NCBI GenBank assembly: GCA_945639195.1
Contig: CALZEE010000007.1
Location: 87,210 to 151,209, forward strand
Reading direction: 5' to 3'
Length of the DNA stretch: 64,000 bases
Origin: an uncultured Ignatzschineria sp.
Lineage (GTDB): Bacteria; Pseudomonadota; Gammaproteobacteria; Cardiobacteriales; Wohlfahrtiimonadaceae
Shown: positions 1 to 64,000 of the stretch, one piece after another
Layout of the letters: each line of letters starts with the position of its first letter
Numbering within the stretch: the first letter of the stretch is position 1
Made by a program: the position numbers and the translations under genes
The notes under the pieces: model-generated
What the model saw: the letters and a program-made list of their open reading frames with translations, nothing else
What the model was told of the DNA's origin: nothing
The model's database searches: none

Positions 1-176
1 CTGTTCCTATGAAGTCAAAAGCAGAGAAACGCGCGTTTAAAGAGAAAAGACGTGAAGCACAAGCGATTGTGGAAGCAGAAGCTGTTGAAAAGGGGCAGTA
101 TAGTGAAGCGAGTAAGATTATTACAAGTCTCGCTACGCATTTAGAACAATATGAGAGTCGTCGTGGAAGATTTTGA
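1..176 (+). CDS. 3' end of an upstream ORF entering the window. Lys/Glu-rich C-terminus, unrecognised and not RecA-like. Overlaps the recX start by 26 bp in another frame.
   Basis: Frame 3 is open from the window edge to TGA at 174-176. Translation: ...KSKAEKRAFKEKRREAQAIVEAEAVEKGQYSEASKIITSLATHLEQYESRRGRF. No family recognised. Confidence 0.2.
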   Translation, partial: VPMKSKAEKRAFKEKRREAQAIVEAEAVEKGQYSEASKIITSLATHLEQYESRRGRF

Positions 177-672
177 TAACGAACCGATTGCCGAATGGGG
201 CGAAACATTAGAAGACCTCATTGCTGACGCTGCAATAGAACCTATTGTAGATGCCGCCAAAGTGGAAGCCGAGCGTTTAAAACTTTGGCGTTATTGGCGT
301 GAGCGAGGAATGAATTTTCTAGTGAGGCGAGAGCATAGTGAAGTAGAGCTTCGGCAAAAGCTTCGTTTACGAGAGTGTCCTGCTGATCTGTTAGAGGAAA
401 TTATTGCGTGGTTTTATGAGCGGAAATATCTCTCTCTAGAGCGTTTTGCCTATAGTTATGCCAAAAATAGGGCAGACTTAGGATATGGCCCTATTAAGAT
501 ACGTTATGAGCTATCGAGTCAACATCAGGTTTCAGATCGAGATATTGGTCTTGCCTTTGAGGAGATTGATTGGGGGCGAGCGAGAGCGACGGCAGAACGA
601 AAAATACGTCAAACAGATCCCGTTAAATATCGTGCAGCACTCTATCGTCGAGGTTTCTCATACGAAGATTAA
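151..672 (+). CDS. recX: Recombination regulator RecX
   Basis: 173 aa. REHSEVELRQKL and GYGPIKIRYELSSQ align with E. coli RecX REHSEQELRRKL and GYGPARIRQELNQKG. Length is typical. Confidence 0.85.
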   Translation: MRVVVEDFDNEPIAEWGETLEDLIADAAIEPIVDAAKVEAERLKLWRYWRERGMNFLVRREHSEVELRQKLRLRECPADLLEEIIAWFYERKYLSLERFAYSYAKNRADLGYGPIKIRYELSSQHQVSDRDIGLAFEEIDWGRARATAERKIRQTDPVKYRAALYRRGFSYED

Positions 673-827
673 AATGGAAGATGCTTAAGCCATTGATATT
701 TGTATTTCAATGACTTAATGCATGGAATCAACTTAAATCTGTATGCTTTTGATCTAACTTCCCTCCTTCCTATAAATTCAAGGTATAATAGTGCCAAATA
801 TTTTGACCTAAATTTAGAGGAAGAAAC

Positions 828-3800
828 ATGGCATTAGATGAGCAGTTGCAACAGTATGGCTTGAGCTTTAAGGATCTCCAGAGCCGCGAGGGTTTAGTTG
901 AGGTTGATACCCTTTTCCAACAACTATTACCGGAAGAAGTCTTACAAACTTTCTTACAGTGGAGACGTGGTGAGACCAGCTTTACAGCAATTGAAGAGTC
1001 TGAGTTTCAGATCGAATTAGGAAAATATGTAAATACCTTCGTCTCTAAGCTCTTTGGGCTTGAGAACGAAACAGAATTCTTGATTGATCGTGCCACACGT
1101 TATGAAACCTTGATGTTATTTAAGGCGCAATTTATCCAACGAGGCGCAAAACGTTATCGACAAGCGATTGAAGGTGACTTTGCAACGCACCATGCCGCAC
1201 TTTTAGCAAAAATCGGTGTGAGTGATGACGATCCTGCGTTAGAAGCTAAAATTGCCAAATACGCTTTAAAGCTCAATGCAGAAACAGATGCAACTGAGAT
1301 CGAAGCGATTCATCAGTGGGGATCTTTAGCTGAATCTGATCCTGTTGGCCAAGCGCGAGTGCAAGATTGGATTACTTTTAAATTCCCGGCAAGACTTGAT
1401 TTTGATAATCTTGTGGGCACAAAAGAAGCAACTTTCCAAGGCATTCCTGTCAAAGTAGGCACGAATCCGCTTCGTCATCGTGATGGTTTTGATCTGACAG
1501 ATAAGCGCATGGATCGTTACGAGATCGCGAGCGAAATTGAATATTGTAAGTATTGTCATGATCATGATGGTGACTTCTGTAGTACGGGCTTCCCTGTTAA
1601 GAAGGGCGATCCGGCACAAGGATTCCGTAAGAATCCCTTTAATGAAACATTAAGTGGCTGCCCACTTGATGAGATGATTTCAGAAATGCAGCGTCTTGAG
1701 AAAGATGGTTTATCAATTGGTTCACTTGCGATCACAATGGTCGAAAATCCAATGGTACCGGCAACAGGTCATCGTATCTGTAATGATTGTATGAAGTCAT
1801 GTATCTATCAGCGCGCAGAACCGGTCAATATCCCTCAAATTGAGACAGGCGTTTTATCAACGGTATTAGATCTTCCTTATGGGGTTGAGATTTACAACCT
1901 TCTTGCAAAATGGAATCCATTAAAGCCTGTCGACTATCTTCCTGCACCAGAAAATGGCCGTAAAGTATTGGTTGCCGGAATGGGACCTGCGGGCTTCACG
2001 ATGACGCATTATCTTGCTCAACAAGGGTGTCATGTTGTCGGGATTGATGGTTTGAAAATCGAACCGCTTCCAGAATCCGTCTTAACACAGCCGATTGAGC
2101 GATGGTCAGACTTAGAAGAGAATCTTGGGGATCGTATCCTTGCAGGTTTCGGGGGTGTTGCGGAGTATGGTATTACCGTTCGTTGGGATAAAAACTTCCT
2201 CAAACTCATCTACTTAACGCTTGCACGTCGTCAAAATGTTGAAGTTTACGGCGGGGTACGCTTGGGCGGTACTTTAACGTTAGATGATGCCTTTGATCTT
2301 GGGTTTGATCACGTTTCGCTTGCTGTTGGCGCAGGTCTTCCACGCGTCTTGAAGATTGATAATTCACTTGCAAAAGGGATGAAACAAGCTTCTGACTTCC
2401 TGATGGCTATGCAGCTTACAGGCGCGGCTAAAGATACTTCAATTGCGAACTTGCAAGTAAGATTGCCGGCAGTGGTCATTGGGGGCGGTTTAACTGCGAT
2501 TGATACCGCGACAGAAGTACAAGCGTACTATATTAAACAAGTTGAAAAAACCCTTCGCCGTGTAGAAGTATTGGGCGAAGCAAAAATCCGTGAAAATCTC
2601 TCACCAGAAGATGATGAGACGCTTACAGAATTCTTGAATCATGGTTTAGAAGTTCGTGCAGAGCGTGAGCGTGCAGCCGCATTAGGCATTGATCCTGACT
2701 TTAACGCACTCATTCAAAAATGGGGCGGAGTGATGATTGCTTATCGCCGTACGATGCAGGAATCTCCGGCATATACGCTTAATCATGAAGAGGTTACAAA
2801 AGCCTTTGAAGAGGGCATTCACTTTGGAGAAGAGCTCAACCCATTAGGCGTTGAACTGGATCAATTTGGTCATGTAAAAGCGATTCGCTTCACAAAATCA
2901 GGCGAAGAAGAAGTCACGGTTCCAGCGCGTGCGGTACTTGTTGCGGCAGGTACATCGCCTAATACCATTTATGGTACCGAATACCCAGGATCTCTTGAAA
3001 TTGAAGAGAAGCACCATTTCCAAGGATATGATCTTGAGGGTAATCTTGTACCGTTTAACTGGGGTACTAATAATAAAGAATCATTTGCACCGTTTACTTC
3101 ATTTAGACGCGGTGAAAAACGAGTATCTTACATTGGTGACACGCATCCCGTCTTTAACGGCAACGTGGTAAAAGCGATTGCGAGTGCGAAGAAATCATCA
3201 CGCTTCATTATGGAAGCGTTAGATCGTCTTCCTGAAAATACGCTTGCGAATGAAGATCTCTCTTTAACCATGCAAAATGGTTTAACGGCGACGATCCAAT
3301 CGATCGATGCTTCTAACCCAACCGTTTGTGAAGTGTGGGTAAAAGCGCCGATGGCTGCGAAAAACTTCAAGCCAGGGCAATTCTTTAGAATGCAGACGTT
3401 TGAAACAGGGAGTGAAATTGTAGATGGCACGCGCTTACAGATCCCGCTTCTTACGGTATCAGGTACGGGTTCAACAGATGATGCGATTCGCCTTTTAGTA
3501 TTCCAATGGGGAACAGGACAACGCCTTATTCCTTCATTAAAACCGGGCGATAAAGTTGTCTTAGCCGGCCCAACAGGAGCGCCAACAGATCTGCCATCTG
3601 GTAAAACTATTCTAGTTGTTGCTGGTCGTTGGGGCGCTGCGGTGATGCTCGATATCGGTTTTGCTCTGAGAAGTGCCGGTAATAAGGTGATTTACCTTGC
3701 GGCGATGGGCTCTAAAAATGATGTAGACCATATGGATGAGCTCGAAGAGGGCGCAGATCAAATCATCTGGGCGGTTGGTAAAGGTGATCCGATTGAAGCA

Positions 3801-4247
3801 AGACGCCCACAAGATCATTCAGTTGTTGAGTGGGATGTGATTAAACTTATCAATGAGCTTGATGATCAAGGCATTGTCGATATGAGTAAAGTCGATCGCT
3901 TAATGGCAATGGGTTCAACAGGAATGCTTAAAGGCTTCCAGAAAGAGCTCTCAGAAGGGGGCACATTACAACCACGCTTTAAAGAAGATGTGCATGTAAC
4001 GGGAACCATTGGTAGCCCAATGCAATGTATGATGAAAGGGGTGTGTGGTCAGTGTCTACAGTGGCAGATTGATCCGGCAACAGGCGAAAGAACAAAAGCG
4101 GTCTTTACCTGTTCTCAGCAAGATCAAGTTCTTAAAAATGTAGACCTTGATAACCTCACGGCACGTACAAGCCAAAACCGATTACCAGATATCATCTCAT
4201 CACATTGGTTAAGTCATGTGCTTGAAGAGAAGAAAAAATCAGAGTAA
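828..4247 (+). CDS. Large fused Fe-S/FAD oxidoreductase. It has a GltD (glutamate synthase small subunit)-like 4Fe-4S plus FAD/NAD(P)-binding core, a C-terminal PyrK/FNR-like domain ending in a 2Fe-2S Cys motif, and a roughly 230-aa N-terminal extension of unknown function.
   Basis: 1139 aa. Cys cluster CKYCHDHDGDFCSTG...GCPLDEM...ICNDCMKSC. Dinucleotide-binding VLVAGMGPAGFT and VVIGGGLTAIDTA. C-terminal CMMKGVCGQCLQWQIDP...FTCSQQD resembles the PyrK/NfnA 2Fe-2S motif. RBS GAGGAAGAAAC precedes the ATG. Confidence 0.7.
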   Translation: MALDEQLQQYGLSFKDLQSREGLVEVDTLFQQLLPEEVLQTFLQWRRGETSFTAIEESEFQIELGKYVNTFVSKLFGLENETEFLIDRATRYETLMLFKAQFIQRGAKRYRQAIEGDFATHHAALLAKIGVSDDDPALEAKIAKYALKLNAETDATEIEAIHQWGSLAESDPVGQARVQDWITFKFPARLDFDNLVGTKEATFQGIPVKVGTNPLRHRDGFDLTDKRMDRYEIASEIEYCKYCHDHDGDFCSTGFPVKKGDPAQGFRKNPFNETLSGCPLDEMISEMQRLEKDGLSIGSLAITMVENPMVPATGHRICNDCMKSCIYQRAEPVNIPQIETGVLSTVLDLPYGVEIYNLLAKWNPLKPVDYLPAPENGRKVLVAGMGPAGFTMTHYLAQQGCHVVGIDGLKIEPLPESVLTQPIERWSDLEENLGDRILAGFGGVAEYGITVRWDKNFLKLIYLTLARRQNVEVYGGVRLGGTLTLDDAFDLGFDHVSLAVGAGLPRVLKIDNSLAKGMKQASDFLMAMQLTGAAKDTSIANLQVRLPAVVIGGGLTAIDTATEVQAYYIKQVEKTLRRVEVLGEAKIRENLSPEDDETLTEFLNHGLEVRAERERAAALGIDPDFNALIQKWGGVMIAYRRTMQESPAYTLNHEEVTKAFEEGIHFGEELNPLGVELDQFGHVKAIRFTKSGEEEVTVPARAVLVAAGTSPNTIYGTEYPGSLEIEEKHHFQGYDLEGNLVPFNWGTNNKESFAPFTSFRRGEKRVSYIGDTHPVFNGNVVKAIASAKKSSRFIMEALDRLPENTLANEDLSLTMQNGLTATIQSIDASNPTVCEVWVKAPMAAKNFKPGQFFRMQTFETGSEIVDGTRLQIPLLTVSGTGSTDDAIRLLVFQWGTGQRLIPSLKPGDKVVLAGPTGAPTDLPSGKTILVVAGRWGAAVMLDIGFALRSAGNKVIYLAAMGSKNDVDHMDELEEGADQIIWAVGKGDPIEARRPQDHSVVEWDVIKLINELDDQGIVDMSKVDRLMAMGSTGMLKGFQKELSEGGTLQPRFKEDVHVTGTIGSPMQCMMKGVCGQCLQWQIDPATGERTKAVFTCSQQDQVLKNVDLDNLTARTSQNRLPDIISSHWLSHVLEEKKKSE

Positions 4248-4291
4248 TTGAATTGCCGGCATTAGTGCGGTAGTTAAGTATTATAAAGAGA

Positions 4292-4319: not shown

Positions 4320-4339
4320 TATCTGAGGGAAACGATCGT

Positions 4340-4646
4340 ATTAAACGCACTTGCATGGCGTCGGATTTAACGATTGTTGTGCTTCTCTAATCTAGCTCGC
4401 CGACTTTTAAAAGCGACTGGCTTTTAATCTGCTGGCGCGAGAGTGCCGGAAAACCGTACCCATTCGATCCAGCTTTGAGAATGCCGGGAAATTCACGCAT
4501 TAAACGCACTTACATGGAGTCGGATTTAACGATTGTTGTGCTTCTCTGATTCGGCTCGCCGACTTGTAAAAACTACTGGCTTTTAATCTACTGGCGCGAG
4601 ATTTTTGGAAAACTGCAAGTATTCGCCCCAGCTTTGAGAATGCCGG
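4340..4646. repeat. Two-copy tandem direct repeat with a period of about 159 bp and roughly 85% identity. It is non-coding and each unit holds an imperfect hairpin (GTCGG...CCGAC).
   Basis: Copy 1 spans 4340-4486 and copy 2 spans 4499-4646. Both run ATTAAACGCACTTRCATGGMGTCGGATTTAACGATTGTTGTGCTTCTCT...CTGGCTTTTAATCTRCTGGCGCGAG...CCAGCTTTGAGAATGCCGG. Confidence 0.8.
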
Positions 4647-4663
4647 AAGAAACATCGACGACC

Positions 4664-4975
4664 CTAAAACGCTTCGAGCTTAATCACATCATATGCCGGC
4701 ACTTCGTAAGGATGTGCGGACTTCATGGCATTCACCGCTGCTTGGATAAGAGTGGTTTCAATAATCATCTCTACACGCCATTCAGGGACTTTTTTCACTT
4801 CATCAATCGTGCCAGAATAAGGGTTGCTGCCCGGAAGGGGTTTGAATTGACCATCCCCGAGAACTTGCCATGCACAGTGAGAGTAGCTCCCAATTTGACC
4901 GCCGCCGACACTAAAAATAGCTTCTTTCACAGATTCAACATGCGAGTCTGGTACAAAAAATATGAATTTATACAT
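4664..4975 (-). CDS. Small conserved hypothetical protein of 103 aa. Family not recognised with confidence.
   Basis: ATG at 4973-4975 with RBS GGAGC. Product: MYKFIFFVPDSHVESVKEAIFSVGGGQIGSYSHCAWQVLGDGQFKP... The annotated TTG-extended ORF and the + strand antisense ORF 4634-5011 are less plausible. Confidence 0.45.
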   Translation of the reverse strand: MYKFIFFVPDSHVESVKEAIFSVGGGQIGSYSHCAWQVLGDGQFKPLPGSNPYSGTIDEVKKVPEWRVEMIIETTLIQAAVNAMKSAHPYEVPAYDVIKLEAF

Positions 4976-5040
4976 CTTTGCTCCTACTTCGGTAAAATAG
5001 ATCAATATTGAAGATCTATCATAAACGAGAGGGGATTTTA

Positions 5041-6314: not shown

Positions 6315-7334
6315 ATGGCTGTGAATTTTTTTGAGCGAAAAGGAATTTCGCTCTCCCCAAGAGTTTATTTTATAGATGCTTTGAGTTATATGGCGTTGGG
6401 GCTTTTCTCATCTTTATTGATGGGGTTGATCGTAAAGACTTTAGGGCAACAACTTGGGATAGAATCCTTTGTTGAACTCGGTAGCTTTGCCATGAAGCCA
6501 GAAATTGTGGGTGGTGCGATTGGGGTAGCAATTGCCGCAAGTTTAAAGGCACCGCCATTGATTCTATTTTCTGCGGTATTTGTGGGCGCTTTTGGAAATT
6601 CACTTGGCGGGCCTGCCGGCGCGTATGTATCTGTGTTGATTGCGGTAGAATCTGCGAAGCTTATTTATAAGCTGACGCGATTAGATATTATTTTAGTACC
6701 ATTTGCGACCTTTATTGTGGGTTACTGGATTGCAAAATGGATCGGGATTCCGATTAGTGAGCTCATGAAAGGGCTCGGTGATCTGATTAACTGGTCTACA
6801 GAGCAACAACCTTTGGTGATGAGTATTTTGGTTGCGACGTTAATGGGATTAGCACTCACTGCACCGATCTCAAGTGCTGCGCTCTCCTTTATGCTTGGGC
6901 TTGATGGCTTGGCAGCGGGTGCTGCTGTCATTGGTTGTAGTGCGCAAATGATTGGTTTTGCAACGAGTAGTTATCGTGAAAATGGCTTTGGCGGTTTCTT
7001 AGCACAAGGTGTCGGGACATCGATGCTGCAGATTGCCAATATCATTAAGAATCCGCTTATTTTAATTCCGCCAACAGTCGCAGGGATGATCGCCGCGCCC
7101 ATTGGTGTTGTACTCTTTAATATGACTAATAATGCAGCGGGTGCCGGAATGGGAACGAGCGGTTTTGTTGGGCAATTTATGGCATTTGAGTCGATGGGCT
7201 TTTCTGTCACTACGGCTATTTATGTGCTTATTTGTCATTTCTTATTGCCGGCAATTGTGAGTTTTACAATCGCAAAATGGTTTTATAAAAAAGGCTGGAT
7301 TAAGCTCGGTGATATGAAGCTGAATTATGAATAG
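6315..7334 (+). CDS. Polytopic inner-membrane protein, tentatively PTS_EIIC_2-like. Function unknown.
   Basis: 339 aa, highly hydrophobic and Gly/Ala-rich with at least 8 predicted TM segments. The family assignment is from memory only. Confidence 0.45.
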   Translation: MAVNFFERKGISLSPRVYFIDALSYMALGLFSSLLMGLIVKTLGQQLGIESFVELGSFAMKPEIVGGAIGVAIAASLKAPPLILFSAVFVGAFGNSLGGPAGAYVSVLIAVESAKLIYKLTRLDIILVPFATFIVGYWIAKWIGIPISELMKGLGDLINWSTEQQPLVMSILVATLMGLALTAPISSAALSFMLGLDGLAAGAAVIGCSAQMIGFATSSYRENGFGGFLAQGVGTSMLQIANIIKNPLILIPPTVAGMIAAPIGVVLFNMTNNAAGAGMGTSGFVGQFMAFESMGFSVTTAIYVLICHFLLPAIVSFTIAKWFYKKGWIKLGDMKLNYE

Positions 7335-10350: not shown

Positions 10351-11628
10351 TTAACGGCGATAAGTCACGCGCTCTTTCTCATTGAGCATGATATGTGTTT
10401 CTGGCAGGGTTGTTTCCGCTAAAATTTTACCGTGACGAATAGAGTAACGGGTAGGCACTTGACGGCGAAGGGCATCAAAGCCATTTTCTGCCGGCAGAAT
10501 AATACAGTTAGCGGGATTGCCGGCTTCAATGCCGTAATTTTGTAAGTGAAGCGTACGAGCACTATTTTTGGTAATAAGATTTAAGCCGTTATTGAGCTCA
10601 GGATATCCCATCATTTGTCCAACATGCATCCCCATATGAAGAACTTGGAGCATATTCGCGGTTCCAAGTGGATACCAAGGGTCAAAGACATCATCATGCC
10701 CAAAACAGACGTTAAGACCGGCTTTAAGAAGTTCTTTAACGCGTGTCATGCCTCGGCGTTTAGGATAGCTATCAAAGCGTCCTTGAAGATGGATATTTAC
10801 AAGGGGATTGGCAACGAAGTTAATGCCGGAAAGTCTAAAGATTCTAAAAAGGCGTGATGCATAAGCATCGTTATAAGAGCCCATAGCGGTCGTATGGCTT
10901 GCAGTGACTCTTTCGCCGATCTCATCACGGTAGGCGAAGGCGGCAACAGATTCTACAAAGCGCGATTGCTCATCATCAATTTCATCACAGTGAATATCGA
11001 TTAAACGATCATATTTCTTAGCAAGCTCAAACACATATTGGAGTGACTCAACGCCATATTCTCGAGTAAATTCAAAGTGGGGAATACCACCAACCGCATC
11101 AGCGCCCATCTTCATCGCTTCTTCTAAAAGCGCTTTCCCATTAGGGAATGAGAGAATCCCCTCTTGCGGAAAGGCAACGACTTGCACATCGATAAAGTCA
11201 CGAACTTCTTCTTTGAGTTCAAGCATCGCTTTTAGCGCGGTAAGCGTCGGATCAGAAACATCCACATGCGTTCTGACATGCTGAATACCATTCGCAATTT
11301 GCCATTTTAGCGTAGTGAGCGCGCGGTTTTTTACATCTTCATTGCTGAGCATCGCTTTGCGTTCAGCCCAGCGCTCGATCCCTTCAAAGAGCGTTCCCGA
11401 CTCATTCCATTTGGGCTCGCCGGCAGTTTGTGTGGTATCTAGATGAATATGTGGCTCAATAAAAGGCGTGGTTACTAAGCCTTCTTCGGCATCAATGATC
11501 TCAATATCATCACTGAGCTGAAGGTTTTCGCTCATCGGGGAAATTTGGCTAAATTTGCCATCTTTCATCACAATTTGCCAAAGGCCATCTGCGTCTCGAA
11601 GTCGAGCATTTTGAATAACACGGGTCAT
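10351..11628 (-). CDS. codA: Cytosine deaminase
   Basis: 425 aa with extensive identity to E. coli CodA, e.g. [49 protein letters not shown] and [25 protein letters not shown]. Confidence 0.95.
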
Positions 11629-12869: not shown

Positions 12870-13200
12870 CTGTTCACTCCGTATAGTGGTTCATTTGATT
12901 TGAACTGAGATAAGTTCTTGATATAGAAAGTTTGTTGCCTTTGTTGTAATGCTATTCGCTAACTGTTCACCGGGCACAAAACTTTCTTATCTTAAAGGTT
13001 TTTAGAAAAAAGGTAAGATTTTTTTCAGGGTTTTTTTCTAAAAAACAGTCAAAAATAGCGCTTCAATGCGAGATTATTGCCGATAATCAAAATATTAGCG
13101 GACATATCCCCTGATTGATGAAAGGTCGTATAAATAGTGCGCATAGTGTTCGAGGGTTCTTGGAAATGCCGGGAAAAGAGCATAGCAGAAGTTCTAGGGA

Positions 13201-41000: not shown

Positions 41001-41159
41001 TGGTGTTCCAAGAACGCAGGTGACACTATACAGTATGCATTGAGCTCCGAAAGGGGCTCTTTTGTTTTGGGGAATTACGTTATAATCCTTAGAACTATTT
41101 AATATGCCGGCATTATTTCGAGAGGGATAATGCGAGGCCTTTACTAATAAGAGATAGAT

Positions 41160-48674: not shown

Positions 48675-48841
48675 TAATTACAAGATTAATGATGGTTGTT
48701 GGATGTCATTCGTATTAGCGTAATCAAAAAAGTCATAAAAGCCACCTCTTAGTAGGTGGTTTTTTTGTTGATGTTATATTCTTTGTTTACGGAAGTTGGT
48801 GATTTCAGTAGTTTGAATTATTTTAAGGATTTAAAGACAAT

Positions 48842-48877
48842 AAAAAAGCCCGTAGACAGTAGTCTCGGGCTTTTTTA
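48842..48877. terminator. Bidirectional terminator downstream of lysS. A weaker hairpin lies at 48737-48767.
   Basis: AAAAAA-GCCCGTAGAC-AGT-AGTCTCGGGC-TTTTTT. Confidence 0.6.
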
Positions 48878-48957
48878 TTTTTGTTTGAGAATCATATCCT
48901 TAATGAATCTTATGACTTAAGGTCGTTAAGATCAATTAAGAACAGGAATCAAATTGA

Positions 48958-49140
48958 TTATGCAGCGATTTGGATGAAGTTTTTCATTTCTTCAAACCAG
49001 TTAAAACCGCCATTTTTATACCAAACTTGTTCAGTATTTGTGTCAATACGAATAATCGTTTCGATACGTTGATCTCTCATTACGTTGTTGCCAACATTTA
49101 CTGAGTTACCATTTTTGTCAAAAAGTTTTTTTGTAATCAT
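48958..49140 (-). CDS. Small hypothetical protein of 60 aa
   Basis: Good SD AGGAGA 8 nt before the ATG. The terminator at 48842-48877 lies directly downstream. No homology recognised. Confidence 0.3.
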   Translation of the reverse strand: MITKKLFDKNGNSVNVGNNVMRDQRIETIIRIDTNTEQVWYKNGGFNWFEEMKNFIQIAA

Positions 49141-50357: not shown

Positions 50358-52052
50358 ATGATGTTGTGGTCTTGGATTGCGGAAACATTCCGTACCTATC
50401 CGGAGCTCGCTATATTCCTCGCGCTTGCGATTGGGTACTGGGTAGGGGCTTTGAAATTTAAAAGTTTTAGTTTAGGTTCGGTAACAGGAACATTATTAGC
50501 GGGTGTTGTGATTGGACAGATCGGGATAGATATCTCTGCACAAGTAAAGTCTGTTTTCTTTATAATGTTTTTATTCTCAGTAGGATTCGGTATTGGACCA
50601 CAATTTGTGAAAGGTCTTGCGAGTGATGGCTTGCCGCAAGCTATTTTTGCAGTGATTATCTCTTGTCTCTGTTTATTAGGAGTGTATATTGCTGCGACTG
50701 TTTCTGGTTATGGACCAGGATTAGCCGCGGGGCTTTTGGCTGGCACCCAAACGATATCAGCATCAATAGGACTTGCTACTGACGCGATCAATCAAATGGA
50801 TGTCAGCTCTGAGGTGATTAGTAAAAATCTTGATCAAATCCCTGTCGCATATGCGATTACTTATCTTTTTGGAACGGTTGGAACGGGTTGGATTGTTGCG
50901 TATGCAGGGCCTAAGATTCTTCGCATAAATTTGAAGCAAGAATGCGCGCGTTATGAAGCAGAGATGTCTCTGGGAGGGCCTGAAGAAGGGATCCAATCTG
51001 CTTGGAACCAGTTTATTATCCGAGCATTTAAATTAAATAATCCTAAAATTGTTGTGGGTAAAACCGTATTAGAAACAGAAGCGTTAGCGGGGGATGAGCG
51101 ACTTTTTATCGAAAATATTCGAAGGAAAGGTAAGATTATTGAATTTGATGATAATACGGTTTTAGAGCTTGATGACATTGTCGCTGTATCAGGGCTTCAT
51201 GAAACGTTGGTGGAAATTACCCATCAGGCAGAAGAAGTAGCCGATAAGGAGCTGTTACAGATTCCGATGTTATCTGTTGATATTATGGTTACTAGTAAAG
51301 ATGCTGCGAATAAAACATTATTAGAGCTATCGTATGCCAAAGAGGCGAGAGGCGTATTTGTACGAAAAATACGCAGAGGATCGATTGGTGTTGAGATCCC
51401 GGTTCATGCACAAACGGTACTGAATCGTGGGGATATTGTGAGCGTGACAGGTAGTAAGAAGCATATTGATGCAATGGCCGGTACGTTTGGTTATATTGAT
51501 CGGGCGACAACCTCAACTAATATGGTGTTAGTAGGTGCCGGCATTGTTATTGGGGGATTATTAGGGTCTATTGTTGTACCCATTGGTGGTTTACCTATTA
51601 CATTATCAACAGCGGGTGGTGCTCTGATTGCCGGATTAATCTGTGGTTGGCTTCGTAGTTTTCACCCTAATTTTGGCAATGTCCCCTCAGAAACATTATG
51701 GTTTATGAATTCTGTAGGATTAAATGTCTTTATTGCCATTGTAGGAATAACGGCAGGACCCACCTTTATTAGTGGTGTAGAGGAAGTTGGGTTTCAAATT
51801 TTCTTCTGGGGGATTTTTGCTACAGCGATGCCAATGTTACTAGCACCTTTAATCGGAAAGTATATTTTTAAATTTGACCCGGCAATCAATCTTGGCTGCT
51901 GCGGAGGTGCAAGAACCAGTACGGCATCTGTGGCGATGGTGGCAGAAGCGGCTGGGAGTAATGTCCCGATGCTCGGCTATACCGTGCCTTATGCTGTGAG
52001 TAATACATTACTAACCTTATGGGGATTGGCGATTGTTTTATTATTAAGATAA
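50358..52052 (+). CDS. Putative transporter of the AspT/YidE/YbjL family, with two membrane domains flanking tandem TrkA_C (RCK_C) domains
   Basis: 564 aa. Hydrophobic N- and C-terminal thirds with a soluble middle. Architecture typical of YidE/YbjL. Confidence 0.65.
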   Translation: MMLWSWIAETFRTYPELAIFLALAIGYWVGALKFKSFSLGSVTGTLLAGVVIGQIGIDISAQVKSVFFIMFLFSVGFGIGPQFVKGLASDGLPQAIFAVIISCLCLLGVYIAATVSGYGPGLAAGLLAGTQTISASIGLATDAINQMDVSSEVISKNLDQIPVAYAITYLFGTVGTGWIVAYAGPKILRINLKQECARYEAEMSLGGPEEGIQSAWNQFIIRAFKLNNPKIVVGKTVLETEALAGDERLFIENIRRKGKIIEFDDNTVLELDDIVAVSGLHETLVEITHQAEEVADKELLQIPMLSVDIMVTSKDAANKTLLELSYAKEARGVFVRKIRRGSIGVEIPVHAQTVLNRGDIVSVTGSKKHIDAMAGTFGYIDRATTSTNMVLVGAGIVIGGLLGSIVVPIGGLPITLSTAGGALIAGLICGWLRSFHPNFGNVPSETLWFMNSVGLNVFIAIVGITAGPTFISGVEEVGFQIFFWGIFATAMPMLLAPLIGKYIFKFDPAINLGCCGGARTSTASVAMVAEAAGSNVPMLGYTVPYAVSNTLLTLWGLAIVLLLR

Positions 52053-53258: not shown

Positions 53259-54113
53259 CTAATCCATAAAATCAAAACCAATATCCAACGCTTTCACACT
53301 ATGTGTGAGCCAACCCATCGCAATGAAATCAACGCCTGTTTTGGCAACGGCTAAAACCGTTTCAGGATTAATACCACCAGAGGCTTCTGTTTTACAGCGG
53401 CCTTTGCAGAGTGCGACTGCTTCTTTGAGCATTTCAGGGGGCATGTTATCGAGAAGTACAAGATCAATGCCCTCATTAAGGGCCAGTTTGAGCTGCGCCA
53501 ATGTATCAACTTCCACTTCAATGGGAATGAGATGACCGGCATATGCTTTTGCGAGTTGGATCGCTTTGGTAATATTGCCGGCAATGGCGATATGATTATC
53601 TTTAATTAAAATGGCATCGTCGAGCCCCATACGATGGTTACGACCGCCGCCCACTCTTACCGCATATTTTTGTAGGATACGAAGCCCAGGCAATGTTTTA
53701 CGAGTACATGTGATTTCAACAGGATAATTCTGCACGCTTTCAACAATCTTCGCAACTTGCGAAGCGATGCCACTTAAATGGGTCATAAAGTTTAGTGCTG
53801 TACGTTCTGCTGTGAGGAGCGCGCGTGCATTTCCTGAAACTGTTGCAAGGACTGTCCCCGGCATAATGCATTCGCCATCTGTGACATGCGCCTGAAAGAT
53901 AATGTTTTTATCGATAGTAGAAAAGGTGAGTTCTGCGAGATCCATGCCAGCAATGATCCCTTTTTCTCGAGAGATAATTTTTAACGAAGCTGTCTGCTCT
54001 GCTTGAATGACCGCCAGACTAGTGACATCACCTCGACGGCCGAGATCTTCTTGAAGCGCAGTTTCCACAAAAGGTTGAAGGAGCAGGTGCGGAAGGGGGG
54101 AGATAGTCGTCAT
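53259..54113 (-). CDS. nadC: Nicotinate-nucleotide pyrophosphorylase (quinolinate phosphoribosyltransferase)
   Basis: 284 aa with a QPRTase fold signature. ALQEDLGRRGDVTS and TRKTLPGLR. Confidence 0.9.
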   Translation of the reverse strand: MTTISPLPHLLLQPFVETALQEDLGRRGDVTSLAVIQAEQTASLKIISREKGIIAGMDLAELTFSTIDKNIIFQAHVTDGECIMPGTVLATVSGNARALLTAERTALNFMTHLSGIASQVAKIVESVQNYPVEITCTRKTLPGLRILQKYAVRVGGGRNHRMGLDDAILIKDNHIAIAGNITKAIQLAKAYAGHLIPIEVEVDTLAQLKLALNEGIDLVLLDNMPPEMLKEAVALCKGRCKTEASGGINPETVLAVAKTGVDFIAMGWLTHSVKALDIGFDFMD

Positions 54114-54463: not shown

Positions 54464-55654
54464 GTGGATATAAATGATTCTCTTCAGGGAGAAAAAGGAT
54501 GTCGTATTGTGAAGCAATCATCGGATAAAAAGATCGAATACACGTTGCCCAATGCAAAAGGGGAAACGCATATTGCAGCGCTTTTTGCAGTGAAGGATAA
54601 TGCCCCTAAAGAAGATTCAGCCGTATTGATTTCGCGCATTAAGTCGCGGCTTAAAGCATTAGATGCAACGTTAATTGCCCATTATTATACGGATCCTTTG
54701 ATTCAAGCCTTGGCGGAAGAGACGGGCGGTTGTGTTGCAGATTCCTTGGAGATGGCACGGTTTGGACGAGATGCTGAAGCGAAGACCTTAATTGTAGCCG
54801 GCGTTCGCTTTATGGGTGAAACCGCTAAGATATTGAGTCCTGATAAAACGGTGTTAATGGCCGATTTAGAGGCGACTTGCTCGCTCGATCTGGGGTGTCC
54901 TGTTGAGGAGTTCTCGGCATTTTGTGATCAGCACCCAGAGAGAACTGTTGTGGTGTACGCCAATACCAGTGCTGAAGTAAAGGCTCGTGCAGATTGGGTG
55001 GTGACTTCTGCGATAGGTTTAGATATTGTCCGGCAATTGCATCAAGAAGGTCATAAGATCATCTGGGGACCAGATCGCCATTTAGGAAACTATATAGCGG
55101 CTGAAACGGGCGCTGATATGCTTATCTGGCAAGGAAACTGTATTGTTCATGACGAATTTAAAGCGAATAGTTTAGCGCTCTATCGAGAAAAACATCCTGA
55201 AGCCGAGGTATTAGTGCATCCAGAATCCCCAAGTAGTGTGATCTCACAGGCGGATGTTGTAGGTTCGACTTCTCAGCTCATTAATGCTGCTAAAAACTCA
55301 CAGGCGAATACTTTTATCGTGGCAACGGATCAAGGGATCTTCTATAAGATGCAACAAGCGGTGCCAGATAAAAAGCTTTTGATTGCACCTACTGCCGGCA
55401 ATAGCGCCACATGTAAGAGTTGTGCAATGTGTCCGTGGATGGCGATGAATACTTTAACAAAGCTCGATCTGCTTCTATCATCGCCGGAGAAAGCGAGGAA
55501 AGGGGAGATTTTAGTCGAAGAAAATATCCGCCAAAAGGCCCTAAAAAGTCTTGGGAGGATGCTCGACTTCTCAGCGCAAAAATCGATTTCTATTCAGGCA
55601 AGTGGAGATCTATTGCAAGATCAGGCACTTTTTCACAATATCGGACCGGCATAG
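54464..55654 (+). CDS. nadA: Quinolinate synthase A
   Basis: Long near-identical stretches to E. coli NadA: [98 protein letters not shown] start at 54464. Exact start uncertain. Confidence 0.9.
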
Positions 55655-57105: not shown

Positions 57106-58128
<1,023 letters not shown>

Positions 58129-58278
58129 GCATTTGTCGTTGTACGAAGCTTAGGCGTTGTGTATCAAAGTGCGGGTTTCCCGCACTTGTTTTCTTAAAAT
58201 GATCTTTTAATAAGCCAGCTATCTTGCAATAAAGGCAAGATAGCGCGGTTTACTGTATGTGAAAAAGAGAGGAGTTCT

Positions 58279-58956
58279 ATGTTTCTCAATGCATACCAAA
58301 CATTGGATAAAGCTTGGCAAAAGCTTGAGATTTTTGTCACAGTTCTGATTCTATCCGCGATGACATTTGTGACTTTCACCTATACGATGCTCAACAATCT
58401 GTATACCCCTTTTTATAACTTGGCGGATTGGATTGCCGGAGATGAACCTTCGGTATTAGAAGATTTCTTCTTAAATGCCGGGGATACGATGATGGATCTT
58501 GCGGCCTCTATGAATTGGTCTAATCGTTTTACTGCCGCATGTTTTGCATGGTTGATTTTTTTCTGCATGTCCTACGGAGTTCGAATTGGCGGTCATATTG
58601 GGGTAGATGCCTTAGTAAAAGTATTCCATAAACGCGTGCAAAGAACCTTGGCTTACTTAGGTTTAGGGGCTTGTCTGCTCTATGGTGGCATTATGCTCTT
58701 TGCGAGTCTTGATTGGGTGATGAACTTCTATAAATTAGGAACATTTGCGGAAGATCTGGATCGCTTTGGGGTGAGACGTTGGCATATTACGATGATTGTT
58801 CCTATTGGATTTACACTCTTAATCCTTCGTTATTTAGAAGTTGGCTATCGAATTATTACGCATCAGCAAGATGGGCTTGGGTTAGCCGATGAAGCCAAAG
58901 ATGCAATCGAAGAGATTGCCGGGGTCGAAGGAATTAAATTAGGAGAGAAGCAATGA
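58279..58956 (+). CDS. dctQ: TRAP transporter small permease (DctQ), copy 1
   Basis: 225 aa, 4 TM segments, overlaps dctM by 4 bp. Confidence 0.85.
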   Translation: MFLNAYQTLDKAWQKLEIFVTVLILSAMTFVTFTYTMLNNLYTPFYNLADWIAGDEPSVLEDFFLNAGDTMMDLAASMNWSNRFTAACFAWLIFFCMSYGVRIGGHIGVDALVKVFHKRVQRTLAYLGLGACLLYGGIMLFASLDWVMNFYKLGTFAEDLDRFGVRRWHITMIVPIGFTLLILRYLEVGYRIITHQQDGLGLADEAKDAIEEIAGVEGIKLGEKQ

Positions 58957-60236
58957 CCATTTTATTTTTATTTGTATTGCTCTTTGCCTTAATGCTGATC
59001 GGCGTACCTGTTGCGATCTCATTGGGATTATCGAGTGCATTAACAATTATGTTTTTTAGTGCTGATTCGCCGCGAAGTTTAGCCATCAAAATGTTTGAAA
59101 CCTCTGAACATTCAACGCTTTTAGCGATTCCATTTTTCCTGATTGCCGGCGCCTTTATGACGACGGGCGGCGTTGCGCAGCGCCTTATTGATTTTGCAAA
59201 CGTCTGTGTCGGGCATATTCGCGGTGGGCTTGCGATTGGTTCGGTATTAGCTTGTATGCTCTTTGCGGCGCTCTCTGGCTCAAGTCCGGCAACGGTTGCT
59301 GCGGTTGGTTCGATCGCTATTGCCGGGATGGTGCGTTCAGGTTACACGCAAGAATTTGGGGCAGGAATCATTTGTAATGCCGGGACGCTAGGGATCTTAA
59401 TTCCACCCTCAATTGTGATGGTTGTTTATGCTGCAGCGACTGAACAATCAGTCGGTAAGATGTTTATTGCCGGCGTTGTACCGGGCGCGTTGCTCGGTGT
59501 CGCATTAATGATTGCGATCTATATTGTTGCGCGCATTAAGAAACTCCCCGCGCAGCCAAGGGCAACAGTAAGAGAGTGGCTAGGTGCATTTAGACGCGCA
59601 ATGTGGGGCTTACTGTTAATGGTGATTATCCTTGGCGGGATTTACACCGGAATGTATACGCCGACAGAAGCGGCTGCAGTTGCGGCAGTTTATTCGATGT
59701 TTGTCGCGCTCTTTATCTATAAAGATATGCGCATTCGTGATTTCTCCAAGGTGATGCTCGAGTCTGGCAAAATGACGGTAATGCTCATGTTCATTATTGC
59801 CAATGCGATGCTCTTTGCCCATGTCTTAACGACAGAGCAAATTCCGCAAACCATTGCGAACTGGGTCTCAACGATGGGCTTCTCGCCATGGATGTTCCTT
59901 GTGATCGTCAACATTGTTTTACTCGTTGCCGGAAGTTTTATGGAGCCATCGGCGGTGATTTTAATCTTAGCGCCGATCTTCTTCCCGATTGCGATGGAGC
60001 TTGGAATTGACCCAATTCATCTCGGGATCATTATGGTGGTTAATATGGAGATTGGTTTAATCACACCGCCGGTGGGCTTAAATCTCTTCGTATCATCAGC
60101 AGTGACTGGCATGCCGATCACAAAGACAATTCGAGCAGCATTACCATGGCTCATGATTCTTCTCTTCTTCTTAATACTCATTACCTATATTCCTAATATC
60201 TCATTAGGATTACCAAAATTATTGGGTGTGATGTAG
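58953..60236 (+). CDS. dctM: TRAP transporter large permease (DctM), copy 1
   Basis: 427 aa polytopic DctM-family protein. Confidence 0.9.
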   Translation: MTILFLFVLLFALMLIGVPVAISLGLSSALTIMFFSADSPRSLAIKMFETSEHSTLLAIPFFLIAGAFMTTGGVAQRLIDFANVCVGHIRGGLAIGSVLACMLFAALSGSSPATVAAVGSIAIAGMVRSGYTQEFGAGIICNAGTLGILIPPSIVMVVYAAATEQSVGKMFIAGVVPGALLGVALMIAIYIVARIKKLPAQPRATVREWLGAFRRAMWGLLLMVIILGGIYTGMYTPTEAAAVAAVYSMFVALFIYKDMRIRDFSKVMLESGKMTVMLMFIIANAMLFAHVLTTEQIPQTIANWVSTMGFSPWMFLVIVNIVLLVAGSFMEPSAVILILAPIFFPIAMELGIDPIHLGIIMVVNMEIGLITPPVGLNLFVSSAVTGMPITKTIRAALPWLMILLFFLILITYIPNISLGLPKLLGVM

Positions 60237-60692: not shown

Positions 60693-61745
<1,053 letters not shown>

Positions 61746-61883
61746 CTGTATTACCTAAGCAGTACAGTATTAAATCCCTCATTTTTTGAGGGATATTCAT
61801 ATTCTTTTAATCTCCCTATCTTTTTTAAACCCCACAACTTGTGGCTAGGAGAGGGAGGCTATTTTGTCAAAAAAGGATGTTAT

Positions 61884-62561
61884 ATGTTTTTTAATCTATA
61901 TCAAGCGTTAGATAAGGGTTGGCAAAAGGTCGAGGTTTTTATTACCGTTGCTATTTTGACGCTGATGACCTTCGTGACTTTTGTCTATACGATGCTCAAT
62001 AATCTCTATACGCCCTTTTATAGTTTAGCGGATAAATTTTCTGGCGATGAGCCCTCTGCATTAGAGGATATCTTCTTAAATATCGGGGATACGATGATGG
62101 ATCTCGCTGCATCCATGAACTGGTCTAATCGCTTTACCGCAGCCTGTTTTGCATGGTTGATCTTCTTTTGTATGTCTTATGGTGTTCGGATTGGTGGGCA
62201 TATTGGCGTGGATGCGTTAGTGAAGCTCTTTAAAAAAAGAACTCAACGATTTTTAGCATATGTGGGTTTAGGAGCTTGTCTCCTTTATGGTGTAATTATG
62301 TTTTTTGCGAGCCTTGATTGGGTCTTTAATTTTTATCAGCTAGGGACTTTCGCAGAAGATCTGGATCGCTTTGGTGTGAGACGTTGGCATATTACGATGA
62401 TTGTTCCGATCGGTTTCTTATTGCTTTTTTTACGATTTTTAGAAGTCGGATATCGAATTATCACCCATCAACAAGATGGTCTTGGTTTAGCAGACGAGGC
62501 TAAAGATGCTTTAGATGAAATTGCGAGTGCTGAAAACATTCAACTAGGAGACAAACAATGA
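61884..62561 (+). CDS. dctQ: TRAP small permease (DctQ), copy 2
   Basis: Start MFFNLYQALDKGW parallels copy 1 MFLNAYQTLDKAW. RBS AAGGA. Confidence 0.85.
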   Translation: MFFNLYQALDKGWQKVEVFITVAILTLMTFVTFVYTMLNNLYTPFYSLADKFSGDEPSALEDIFLNIGDTMMDLAASMNWSNRFTAACFAWLIFFCMSYGVRIGGHIGVDALVKLFKKRTQRFLAYVGLGACLLYGVIMFFASLDWVFNFYQLGTFAEDLDRFGVRRWHITMIVPIGFLLLFLRFLEVGYRIITHQQDGLGLADEAKDALDEIASAENIQLGDKQ

Positions 62562-63841
62562 CCATTTTATTTCTATTTGTAATACTTTTTGTTTTGATGT
62601 TGATCGGTGTTCCTATCGCGATTTCATTGGGGTTATCGAGTGCATTAACGATTATGTTCTTTAGCCCCGATTCTACTCGAGGATTAGCGATTAAGATGTT
62701 TGAAACATCAGAACACACCACCTTACTTGCGATCCCATTTTTCCTAATTGCCGGTGCTTTTATGACAACGGGTGGCGTTGCACAACGGCTCATTGATTTT
62801 GCCAATGCTTGCGTGGGGCATATTCGTGGAGGTCTTGCGATTGGTTCGGTATTGGCTTGTATGCTTTTTGCCGCGCTCTCGGGTTCTAGTCCCGCAACAG
62901 TTGCCGCAGTGGGTTCTATTGCCATTGCCGGGATGGTGCGTTCTGGATATACACAAGAATTTGGGGCAGGGATTATCTGTAATGCCGGAACATTAGGGAT
63001 TTTAATCCCACCCTCAATCGTCATGGTTGTGTATGCAGCCGCAACAGAGCAATCTGTAGGTAAAATGTTTGTTGCAGGTGTTATTCCTGGGATTTTGCTA
63101 GGGATTGCGTTGATGGTTGCGATTTATATTGTCGCGCGAGTTAAAAAACTACCTGCTCAACCACGTGTTTCGGTAAAAGAGTGGCTGGGTGCATTTAGAC
63201 GCGCAATGTGGGGCTTACTATTAATGGTGATTATTCTCGGGGGGATTTATACCGGGATGTATACACCTACAGAAGCGGCAGCGGTTGCGGCGGTTTACTC
63301 GATGTTTGTCGCGCTCTTTATCTATAAAGATATGCGCATTCGCGATTTCTCCAAAGTTATGTTGGACTCAGGGAAAATGACGGTAATGTTGATGTTCATT
63401 ATTGCCAATGCCATGCTTTTTGCCCATGTTTTAACAACAGAACAAATTCCGCAAACAATCGCTAGCTGGGTTTCCGAAATGGGCTTCTCACCATGGATGT
63501 TCCTTGTGATCGTGAATATTGTGTTGTTAATTGCGGGGAGTTTCATGGAGCCATCGGCAGTGATCTTAATACTTGCACCGATCTTCTTCCCGATTGCAAT
63601 GGAATTGGGTATTGATCCTATTCACTTAGGAATTATCATGGTGGTCAATATGGAAATAGGCTTGATTACACCACCGGTAGGACTGAACTTATTTGTAACT
63701 TCCGCAGTAACGGGTATGCCAATTACTCGCACGATTAAAGCCGCATTGCCATGGTTAATGATCTTACTGGTCTTCTTAATATTAATTACTTATATTCCTG
63801 CAATCTCCCTCGCATTACCGAATTTCTTGGGAATGATGTAG
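62558..63841 (+). CDS. dctM: TRAP large permease (DctM), copy 2
   Basis: 427 aa, over 90% identical to copy 1. Confidence 0.9.
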   Translation: MTILFLFVILFVLMLIGVPIAISLGLSSALTIMFFSPDSTRGLAIKMFETSEHTTLLAIPFFLIAGAFMTTGGVAQRLIDFANACVGHIRGGLAIGSVLACMLFAALSGSSPATVAAVGSIAIAGMVRSGYTQEFGAGIICNAGTLGILIPPSIVMVVYAAATEQSVGKMFVAGVIPGILLGIALMVAIYIVARVKKLPAQPRVSVKEWLGAFRRAMWGLLLMVIILGGIYTGMYTPTEAAAVAAVYSMFVALFIYKDMRIRDFSKVMLDSGKMTVMLMFIIANAMLFAHVLTTEQIPQTIASWVSEMGFSPWMFLVIVNIVLLIAGSFMEPSAVILILAPIFFPIAMELGIDPIHLGIIMVVNMEIGLITPPVGLNLFVTSAVTGMPITRTIKAALPWLMILLVFLILITYIPAISLALPNFLGMM

Positions 63842-63901
63842 GGCGTATTAATTAACAGATAAAAAGTTAAATGGAGAGAAAATATTGCTCTCATAACGCG
63901 T

Positions 63902-63937
63902 AAAAGCCAATAAGGAGAATATCTTTATTGGCTTTTT
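63902..63937 (+). terminator. Rho-independent terminator of the second dctPQM operon
   Basis: AAAAGCCAATAA-loop-TTATTGGCTTTTT. Confidence 0.65.
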
Positions 63938-64000
63938 ATTGCTTTAAAAATAGGGGCTGTTGAACATTGTAGTTCAAAATAAAAAAAGCGAGCGGTAGAA

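Follow-up and report, generated by a model that had tools for sequence, protein, structure and literature searches.

What makes a single palindromic octamer, TGCCGGCA, the commonest 8-mer in a stretch of bacterial chromosome, above even the A/T homopolymer-like words? The question is raised by 64,000 nt of DNA (the whole stretch analysed, hereafter the window) from an uncultured Ignatzschineria sp. (Gammaproteobacteria, Wohlfahrtiimonadaceae; GenBank assembly GCA_945639195.1, contig CALZEE010000007.1, positions 87,210–151,209). Few bacterial genomes contain hyper-abundant short words and, where these are understood, as for the DNA uptake sequences (DUS), the uptake signal sequences (USS), Chi, and the FtsK-orienting polar sequences (KOPS), they report a major DNA-handling machine. 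A first-pass annotation of the window had described TGCCGGCA as a highly iterated palindrome, in at least 16 copies against about 0.4 expected from composition. That expectation is correct and the count is indeed high: 18 copies are present, those at 2464 and 15466 having been missed, whereas 100 dinucleotide-preserving shuffles of the window averaged 0.90 copies and never exceeded 4. The entity that is iterated, however, is not the palindrome. It is the hexameric half-site TGCCGG, and the palindrome consists of two such hexamers on opposite strands that share a self-complementary CCGG.

The iterated unit and its flanks

The forward strand of the window carries 63 copies of TGCCGG and 43 of CCGGCA, giving 106 half-sites against 18.9 expected from dinucleotide frequencies; the earlier estimate of about 70 against 12 was roughly right for one strand. 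Over about 199 kb, comprising the window and about 135 kb of related loci (L001–L007 and L021), 262 occurrences were observed and 54 expected. Relative to dinucleotide models, the enrichment is about 5-fold for the hexamer and about 20-fold for the octamer. Ranked by observed-to-expected ratio (O/E), TGCCGG and GCCGGC head the hexamers of the window and of four to seven related genomes, and the 8-mers that rank next after TGCCGGCA in the window are extensions of its half-site (ATTGCCGG/CCGGCAAT, 31 on both strands; AATGCCGG/CCGGCATT, 25).

Each CCGG was scored as two flanks, and flank identity was tested for independence between the two sides. With the probability of a TG flank at 0.368, 19.5 full palindromes are expected in the window if the flanks are independent, and 18 are observed; the related genomes contain 25 against 22.5 expected, and a G flank alone surrounds CCGG in 36 cases against 38.0. 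Under Markov models of rising order, the O/E of TGCCGGCA falls from 22 (order 1) through 7.7 (order 3) and 1.8 (order 4) to 0.97 (order 5). Maximal-order ratios, computed on about 192 kb of pooled sequence, are 1.19 for TGCC, 1.30 for GCCG, and 1.28 for CCGG; they reach 1.34 for TGCCG, 1.40 for GCCGG, and 1.39 for TGCCGG, and lie near unity for the longer or symmetrical words (GCCGGC 1.01; TGCCGGC 1.03; TGCCGGCA 0.96). After correction for oligonucleotide composition, an excess persists in the hexamer (1.39) and vanishes in the octamer (0.96–0.97). Half-site independence and the maximal-order ratios, with no excess beyond the hexamer, rule out the palindromic octamer or 12-mer, which the first-pass annotation had taken for the iterated entity, as the unit. 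The self-complementary CCGG centre makes independently enriched half-sites coincide often, and TGCCGGCA and the longer palindromes arise at the chance rate.

The flanks of CCGG are graded. Among NNCCGG words the O/E is 4.86 for TG, 2.40 for CG, 1.74 for CA, and 1.65 for TA, and no other flank exceeds 1.3; flanks that are not pyrimidine–purine (YR) are depleted to 0.4–0.6, and AG stands at 0.38. All RCCGGY words are enriched (GCCGGC 4.2-fold, ACCGGC/GCCGGT 2.0-fold, ACCGGT 1.55-fold), and CCGG palindromes outside this class are avoided (TCCGGA 0.53, CCCGGG 0.08). More broadly, enrichment extends to the class Y-RCCGGY-R, in which R is preferentially G and the outer Y preferentially T. Beyond it, position −4 is A in 68 of the 106 half-sites of the window, compared with 29–34% in controls, a preference that holds in intergenic DNA and in almost all classes of frame and orientation. 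In the species of the window the half-site extends to AWTGCCGG, which occurs 56 times per 64 kb (about 0.9 per kb), and the flank is weaker in other species; TGCCGGTG is likewise enriched in the window (17 observed, 2.5 expected).

Several other palindromic hexamers are scarce in the window and related loci: CCCGGG and GGGCCC are near-absent (0 against 4.1 and 0 against 5.2 expected), and CGGCCG, CCTAGG, GCTAGC, TTCGAA, and GAATTC stand at 0.15–0.3 times expectation. Their scarcity is the usual signature of restriction avoidance. Since other GC palindromes are strongly avoided, the approximately 4-fold excess of GCCGGC is a singular exception and stands out the more.

Context, turnover, and phylogenetic range

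Synonymous codons were shuffled 1000 times within each gene, with protein sequence and per-gene codon usage unchanged. Genes contain 16 copies of TGCCGGCA against 2.2 ± 1.4 in the shuffled sets (maximum 7 in 1000 shuffles; z = 9.7), 59 sense-strand copies of TGCCGG against 15.8 ± 3.5 (z = 12.4), and 39 sense-strand copies of CCGGCA against 11.4 ± 3.1, the two orientations relative to transcription being enriched alike (3.7- and 3.4-fold). Ala-Gly is encoded as GCC-GGC 22 times against 5.4 expected, although GCC is the rarest alanine codon (16%), and Pro-Ala as CCG-GCA 21 times against 5.4, although CCG (25% of proline codons) is not preferred. Neither dipeptide is itself over-represented (O/E about 1.09 for Ala-Gly and about 1.0 for Pro-Ala, by arithmetic from the counts), so the excess of TGCCGG is a DNA-level property realised at free positions, not a codon or peptide artefact. 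The palindromes are read as xxT-GCC-GGC-Axx nine times, as xTG-CCG-GCA six times, and as TGC-CGG-CAx once, and two are intergenic. The non-coding DNA of the window (10.5 kb, GC 0.33) holds 8 half-sites against 1.2 expected (O/E 6.7; p = 4e-5). The first-pass annotation had placed the word in several frames, on both strands, and in intergenic DNA, and had denied that it was a by-product of codon usage; the shuffles and codon-context counts bear this out, with two main frames and both orientations represented instead of a single codon context. Taken together, synonymous shuffling, codon-pair tables, and intergenic counts rule out an explanation by codons or dipeptides. The force works through synonymous codon choice and non-coding DNA, and protein composition is left unchanged. 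Occupancy of the amino-acid-compatible positions in the window is 34% for sense TGCCGG and 17% for sense CCGGCA, a gap that exists because the codon-usage baselines differ (O/E 3.7 and 3.4), and it is low in the genes for GAPDH (0/5) and IMPDH (1/24).

Individual sites turn over. When nine orthologous gene blocks were aligned, most sites were present in only one of the three to eight species compared. A motif hexamer is kept in another species in 35% of cases, against 18% for phase- and GC-matched control hexamers, and at positions compatible with the motif in both species (identical amino acids) the motif state is shared in 43%, against 22% for other synonymous hexamers, the species pairs in both comparisons not being phylogenetically independent. 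At the same positions, a non-motif state is matched by the motif in 12.8%. Such surplus retention is what any directional force would give: TGCCGG is a favoured, longer-lived state, and its individual positions are not fixed. At the 70–82% nucleotide identity of these orthologue alignments, synonymous sites are too diverged to show the path of substitution. A conspecific set of single-nucleotide polymorphisms (SNPs) was drawn from 10 metagenomic contigs that are 97.6–99.7% identical to the window (18 kb, 373 SNP alleles). Two of the SNPs fall in motif bases against 2.7 expected, a comparison of low power, and changes at the inner and outer positions of CCGG stand at 9:1, a ratio matched by other words (e.g., 14:1 for GACC).

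Three polymorphisms within the species were seen as individual cases. One is an anecdotal change of TGCCGGCA to TGCTGGCA among the conspecific contigs. The other two, at window positions 38924 and 42388, have CGCCGG in the window and TGCCGG in loci L032 and L034; the difference is a C/T transition between the two half-site variants of highest enrichment, and such events are too few to interpret.

The 88 cores of the window have a Poisson-like spacing (coefficient of variation 1.17), and no regular spacing was found at the 64-kb scale. Non-palindromic TGCCGG lies on the G-rich (leading) strand in 45 cases against 25 in the window and in 64 against 42 in the relatives, or 62% overall. Composition skew alone predicts about 56% by arithmetic, the strand bias is gone in genes on the minus strand (11 against 13), and GC skew is uniform across the window.

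Relatedness to other genomes was expressed as identity to the leucyl-tRNA synthetase (LeuRS) of the window, and the O/E of TGCCGG was computed under a dinucleotide model. The LeuRS is 87–91% identical to those of I. cameli, I. ureiclastica, strain F8392, and several metagenome-assembled genomes of Ignatzschineria, and an identical LeuRS (from Met24 of the open reading frame, ORF) occurs on metagenomic contigs of the same species. TGCCGG has an O/E of 5.6 in the window (LeuRS 100%) and of 3.0–6.1 in seven related Ignatzschineria (87–91%), in most of which it is the first or second hexamer. The ratio is 1.0 in L038, an RMDPL8A-like, more distant Ignatzschineria lineage (80%), 1.8 in L024 (77%), 0.22 in L027 (68%), and 0.46 in Wohlfahrtiimonas chitiniclastica (67%); among genomes of the same GC content, Fangia has 1.3 and a Coxiellaceae genome 0.43. 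CCGG itself is under-represented in the outgroups (0.3–0.9). The word is shared by related Ignatzschineria species, and its enrichment is confined to the clade with a LeuRS at least 87% identical to that of the window, in which all eight sampled genomes are enriched. Given an enriched clade and non-enriched outgroups, the trait arose within the genus Ignatzschineria, and its distribution among lineages fits the gain of one gene.

Two further observations came from these comparisons. The longest leuS ORF of the window (37352–40006, minus strand) begins 23 codons upstream of the start in all database orthologues (Met24, window position 39937), and exact-match look-ups of the LeuRS succeed only with the shorter form from Met24. 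A second word, CTCTTT/AAAGAG (in 8-mers like TTAAAGAG), exceeds expectation 2.4- to 4.8-fold in the window, the pooled related Ignatzschineria loci, L024–L026, L038, and Wohlfahrtiimonas; it is not among the top words of L027. It is largely a family-wide word bias, unrelated to the CCGG word.

Sites and gene content of the window

The 18 palindromes are each made of two overlapping TGCCGG half-sites. Six are read with CCG-GCA in frame: as TTG-CCG-GCA at 2464–2471 (in the gene at 828–4247), 7246–7253 (PTS EIIC gene), and 27085–27092 (heme oxygenase gene, plus strand), as CTG-CCG-GCA at 10489–10496 (cytosine deaminase gene, minus strand), and as ATG-CCG-GCA at 15466–15473 (leucyl aminopeptidase gene, minus strand) and 39680–39687 (leuS, minus strand). 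GCC-GGC is in frame on the minus strand at 17164–17171 (AAT-GCC-GGC-AAA, gene at 16967–17830), 18368–18375 (CGT-GCC-GGC-ATT, pseudouridine synthase gene), 29327–29334 and 30239–30246 (ATT-GCC-GGC-ATT and AAT-GCC-GGC-ACT, both in a DUF3686/AAA gene), and 43331–43338 (ATT-GCC-GGC-ATT, gene at 42846–43622), and on the plus strand at 51536–51543 (GGT-GCC-GGC-ATT, Asp-Al_Ex permease gene), 55393–55400 (ACT-GCC-GGC-AAT, nadA), and 61610–61617 (GAT-GCC-GGC-ACA, DctP gene). A further copy lies at 53576–53583 in a nadC-like gene (minus strand), and the sole copy in the frame TGC-CGG-CAC is at 4694–4701 in the ORF at 4634–5011. The two intergenic copies are at 4254–4261, 7 nt past the stop of the 828–4247 gene and in the 12-mer form AATTGCCGGCATT, and at 41105–41112 in the spacer at 41001–41159, where one conspecific contig (L033) has TGCTGGCA; neither of them has terminator features (a T-run). 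Of the 16 start positions first reported, 11 are exact, whereas 17165, 27086, 51535, and 61609 were off by one and 39671 by nine (the site at 39680). The 12-mers named at the same time are likewise real and were slightly misplaced: ATTGCCGGCAAT occupies 7244–7255 and 53574–53585, each 2 nt from the position given for it, and AATGCCGGGAAA occupies 4480–4491 and 13165–13176, its earlier coordinates being off by 1 and 16.

Single, non-palindromic half-sites number 45 on the plus strand (within 1973–62988) and 25 on the minus strand (CCGGCA on the plus strand, within 1386–59291). The former start at 1973, 3674, 4444, 4482, 4641, 5064, 5534, 5741, 6614, 7142, 10518, 10824, 11981, 12066, 13167, 18440, 20384, 22632, 24822, 27423, 27761, 28308, 30582, 32327, 36775, 37478, 41411, 42463, 46459, 48500, 49234, 51629, 55751, 58434, 58476, 58917, 59144, 59321, 59378, 59468, 59927, 60925, 62749, 62926, and 62983, and the latter at 1386, 1611, 1758, 2766, 4074, 5410, 5906, 11420, 11755, 12247, 12463, 12751, 17215, 23021, 29567, 30787, 32290, 33166, 43072, 51879, 53536, 53858, 55030, 55646, and 59286.

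The genes around these sites serve housekeeping and transport, and include recX, codAB, pepA, gapA, icd, leuS, guaB, lysS, nadAC, a GltD-like oxidoreductase, a heme receptor, and two TRAP systems. Pfam and NCBIfam scans together covered all 46 window genes, and no methyltransferase, Vsr, restriction enzyme, nuclease, pilin, or competence gene was found among them by these family scans. The TRAP operons (DctP-DctQ-DctM) stand in tandem at 57127–60236 and 60726–63841 and appear to be paralogous duplicates. Between lysS and a permease gene lies 1.7 kb of AT-rich DNA (48675–50357, GC about 0.35) with no ORF longer than 63 amino acids, tRNA, or Rfam match. A four-gene block at 27852–37084 (minus strand) is present in the conspecific contigs and missing in related Ignatzschineria between leuS and icd (or the heme-receptor region). 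It encodes an unknown protein of 315 amino acids, a protein of 1644 amino acids with DUF3686 ('ATPase involved in DNA repair'), DUF7902, and AAA domains, an SPFH/Band-7 protein of 663 amino acids, and an unknown protein of about 223 amino acids. PADLOC, run on these four genes (27.8–37.1 kb), returned no match. The block could be an uncharacterised defence or repair module. TGCCGG occurs in it at near-normal density, with 10 half-sites in the large gene and none in the SPFH gene.

Possible causes and their meaning

The observations describe a DNA-level, orientation-independent force that acts on each half-site separately, with a strict CCGG core and graded flanks, and that is recent and lineage-restricted. 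It is weak and genome-wide, not site-specific, given the turnover of sites, their Poisson-like spacing, the lack of dipeptide excess, and the low occupancy in the GAPDH and IMPDH genes. We favour tentatively, and with rather less than even confidence, the reading that the TGCCGG excess is the footprint of a lineage-specific 5-methylcytosine (m5C) methyltransferase of the CCGG family and of strand-wise biased repair. Such an enzyme, most likely with RCCGGY-like specificity, would be linked to a partner activity, in repair or strand discrimination, through which mismatches in near-cognate sites would be resolved towards the methylatable sequence. It would act on each strand's half-site separately, and the outer positions would reflect the flanks that it prefers (Y, then A/W). 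A process of this 'highly iterated palindrome' type has been proposed for cyanobacteria. The word's abundance may be a by-product, not a selected function. Independent half-sites with no excess beyond the hexamer are what strand-wise action would be expected to leave. Enzymes of the Cfr10I/BsrFI/DmtD type recognise RCCGGY, and the match between the enriched class and this known specificity supports a methyltransferase.

A counterpart exists among cyanobacteria. In Oscillatoria PCC 10802, the highly iterated palindrome HIP1 (GCGATCGC) is replaced by a hyper-abundant rCCGGy within tGCCGGTg/cACCGGCa (Elhai 2015, Life 5:921, PMC4390886); enrichment there involves three of the four RCCGGY words, and just one instance in about three is the palindromic GCCGGC (PMC4390886). 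This rCCGGy is associated with DmtD, an m5C methyltransferase that modifies the first C, and Elhai's explanation is a hypothetical mismatch-repair ratchet directed by G-m5C (PMC4390886). The likeness to HIP1 noted by the first-pass annotation is the best comparison available, in that the rCCGGy 'alternate HIP' contains the same half-site (Elhai 2015, PMC4390886). Oscillatoria and Ignatzschineria share CCGG-centred hyper-abundance, the half-site TGCCGG, an RCCGGY class with G favoured, and Y-R flanks; the palindrome is not 'fixed' and fails as a unit in both, and occurrence is sporadic and lineage-restricted. Ignatzschineria differs in being a gammaproteobacterium, in its dominant 8-mer (TGCCGGCA, not CACCGGCA), and in the mild enrichment of ACCGGT too, and whereas DmtD is the cognate methyltransferase in Oscillatoria, its counterpart in Ignatzschineria is hypothetical.

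With HIP1 itself the word shares a GC-rich palindromic core, a place among the commonest oligomers, occurrence in all usable frames and in intergenic DNA, realisation through synonymous choice, and clade-specific variants. HIP1, however, is 15- to 300-fold over-represented, with sites that are conserved within and between ORFs and periodic (Xu et al. 2018, PMC5861425), compared with about 5-fold for TGCCGG and about 20-fold for the octamer. The periodicity of HIP1 is at the 10–90 kb scale, and the Poisson-like spacing in Ignatzschineria is a local property, within 64 kb. In some genomes HIP1 resides mostly in a single longer palindromic extension (Elhai 2015, PMC4390886), whereas TGCCGGCA is fully explained by independent hexamers. 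Of the features that define a HIP, a palindromic-core word among the most over-represented is present in Ignatzschineria, and a palindrome that is itself the iterated unit is not.

Several points weigh against methylation and biased repair as the cause. Dcm/Vsr very-short-patch repair in E. coli embodies the same idea, a methyltransferase-linked T:G repair that can reportedly shift oligonucleotide frequencies towards the methylated word. Its effects in E. coli are modest and come with depletion of T-containing products, whereas TGCTGG, TGTCGG, and CTGGCA are not specifically depleted in Ignatzschineria. The deamination products TGTCGG and TGCTGG have O/E values of 0.90 and 0.77; TGCCAG, at 0.50, is 257th of 4093 hexamers from the most depleted, and nearly all NNCCAG/NNCTGG words lie at 0.3–1.2, so the very-short-patch signature of depleted C-to-T neighbours is not specific. 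By our reasoning, a single boosted transition gives at most about 2-fold enrichment, and a broader conversion bias is required. The conspecific contigs (18 kb, low power) show no SNP hot spot at CCGG, where 0.26 events per site are typical of GC-rich 4-mers. The A/W preference at −4 and −3 makes the half-site 8 nt long, longer than is usual for a type II methyltransferase. A regular-expression search of six-frame translations of the roughly 199 kb, aimed at the methyltransferase or Vsr-like gene that the first-pass annotation had suggested looking for, found no m5C or N6 methyltransferase or Vsr motif. The cognate methyltransferase is hypothetical, the search having covered the 64-kb window and about 135 kb of related loci. 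Even for cyanobacteria, repair directed by G-m5C is an unproven model, and Xu, Lawrence and Durand (2018, PMC5861425) attribute the maintenance of HIP1 to selection instead of biased repair.

What else could produce such a word? It might be a DNA-uptake or self-recognition signal, with AWTGCCGG (possibly methylated) bound, taken up, or recombined preferentially and spread by molecular drive as DUS and USS are. We regard this as unlikely, though it is the main rival. The density of about 0.9 AWTGCCGG per kb is like that of known USS and DUS, and the word resembles the DUS of Neisseriaceae and the USS of Pasteurellaceae in standing at about 1 per kb in both orientations (here equally enriched, 3.7- and 3.4-fold) and inside genes, in being shared by a clade (here close relatives, to the exclusion of the sister genus Wohlfahrtiimonas), and in accumulating without positional conservation, its positions turning over while density is kept. 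The A-rich flank, present in nearly every frame class and longer than a typical methyltransferase site, also points this way. DUS and USS, however, are asymmetric, sharply defined words of 9–12 nt with a strong consensus and no palindromic core, they alter peptide composition, and DUS form pairs at terminators. TGCCGG carries its information in 6 nt, with flanks that are weak in other species, leaves no peptide imprint, the encoded dipeptides not being in excess, and forms no inverted pairs at terminators, only 2 of its 18 palindromes being intergenic and both lacking a T-run. DUS and USS are tied to demonstrated competence, and DUS also to the receptor ComP, whereas natural competence in Ignatzschineria was not documented in the literature searched and the window genes include no pilin or competence gene. 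Cyanobacteria offer some support, since transformation of Synechococcus PCC 7002 rises more than 100-fold with methylated HIP1 (bioRxiv 10.1101/2024.09.10.611283) and a role as uptake sequence has been suggested for HIP1 (bioRxiv 10.64898/2026.06.24.733823). Uptake and methylation are compatible, not mutually exclusive.

Improbable in our judgement is a selected binding site for an abundant chromosomal protein (for nucleoid organisation, segregation, or replication) whose monomer reads one TGCCGG half-site. At matching positions, the motif state is about twice as likely to be retained as its synonymous alternatives, coding and non-coding DNA are equally enriched, and both selection and a role in chromosome structure have been argued for HIP1 (Xu et al. 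2018, PMC5861425). Yet independent half-sites put no premium on full dimeric sites, spacing is Poisson-like with no conservation of single positions seen, polymorphism at motif positions is not reduced (2 SNPs against 2.7 expected, at low power), and a sudden origin within the genus would need a new protein together with thousands of sites. A polar signal for recombination or translocation, Chi- or KOPS-like and read in one orientation relative to replication, would account for the mild surplus on the G-rich strand. Chi and KOPS, however, are skewed by 75% to more than 85%, whereas most of the 62% seen here is predicted by composition and the bias vanishes in minus-strand genes; O/E is equal in both orientations relative to transcription and a quarter of the sites are perfectly palindromic. 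Weak strand bias, equal O/E, and uniform GC skew largely refute such polarity, and we consider it highly improbable. Least credible of all is an artefact of composition, codon usage, or restriction avoidance, by which TGCCGG would be the remainder after other CCGG contexts were purged. CCGG palindromes are indeed avoided (CCCGGG, TCCGGA), as are non-YR half-sites, but the absolute excess of 262 against 54 cannot arise by the removal of other words. The synonymous shuffles (z = 9.7 for the octamer and 12.4 for the hexamer), the far-above-expected use of GCC-GGC and CCG-GCA, and the intergenic O/E of 6.7 all speak against it, and genomes of the same GC content (Fangia, the Coxiellaceae genome, Wohlfahrtiimonas) show no excess.

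Returning to methylation with biased repair, it is conceivable, if on the doubtful side, that Ignatzschineria has the first HIP-type system outside cyanobacteria, in which a CCGG-family cytosine methyltransferase and a repair or uptake partner, gained recently, write TGCCGG into the genome, possibly as a methylated 'self' tag in transformation or recombination. The literature searched on Ignatzschineria and TGCCGGCA contained no prior description of the word in the genus. The mechanism of HIP1 is unresolved after three decades, biased repair, selection on chromosome structure, and a transformation signal all having been proposed. TGCCGG is a HIP-like word outside cyanobacteria and is evolutionarily young, and its young origin makes the cause experimentally tractable, in a genus of culturable, fly-associated bacteria that are emerging myiasis-associated pathogens. 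Enriched and non-enriched sister lineages (RMDPL8A-like, 1.0-fold; Wohlfahrtiimonas, 0.5-fold) form a natural experiment in which presence/absence genomics could pin down the causal gene. For HIP1, which nearly all cyanobacteria share, such a mapping has for that reason been out of reach for 30 years. As a strong compositional signature, TGCCGG could also help to bin Ignatzschineria DNA and to recognise foreign DNA in these pathogens. A second, independent instance of such a word would let causality among methylation, repair, and word abundance be tested, and could show whether words of this kind are by-products or self-recognition tags.

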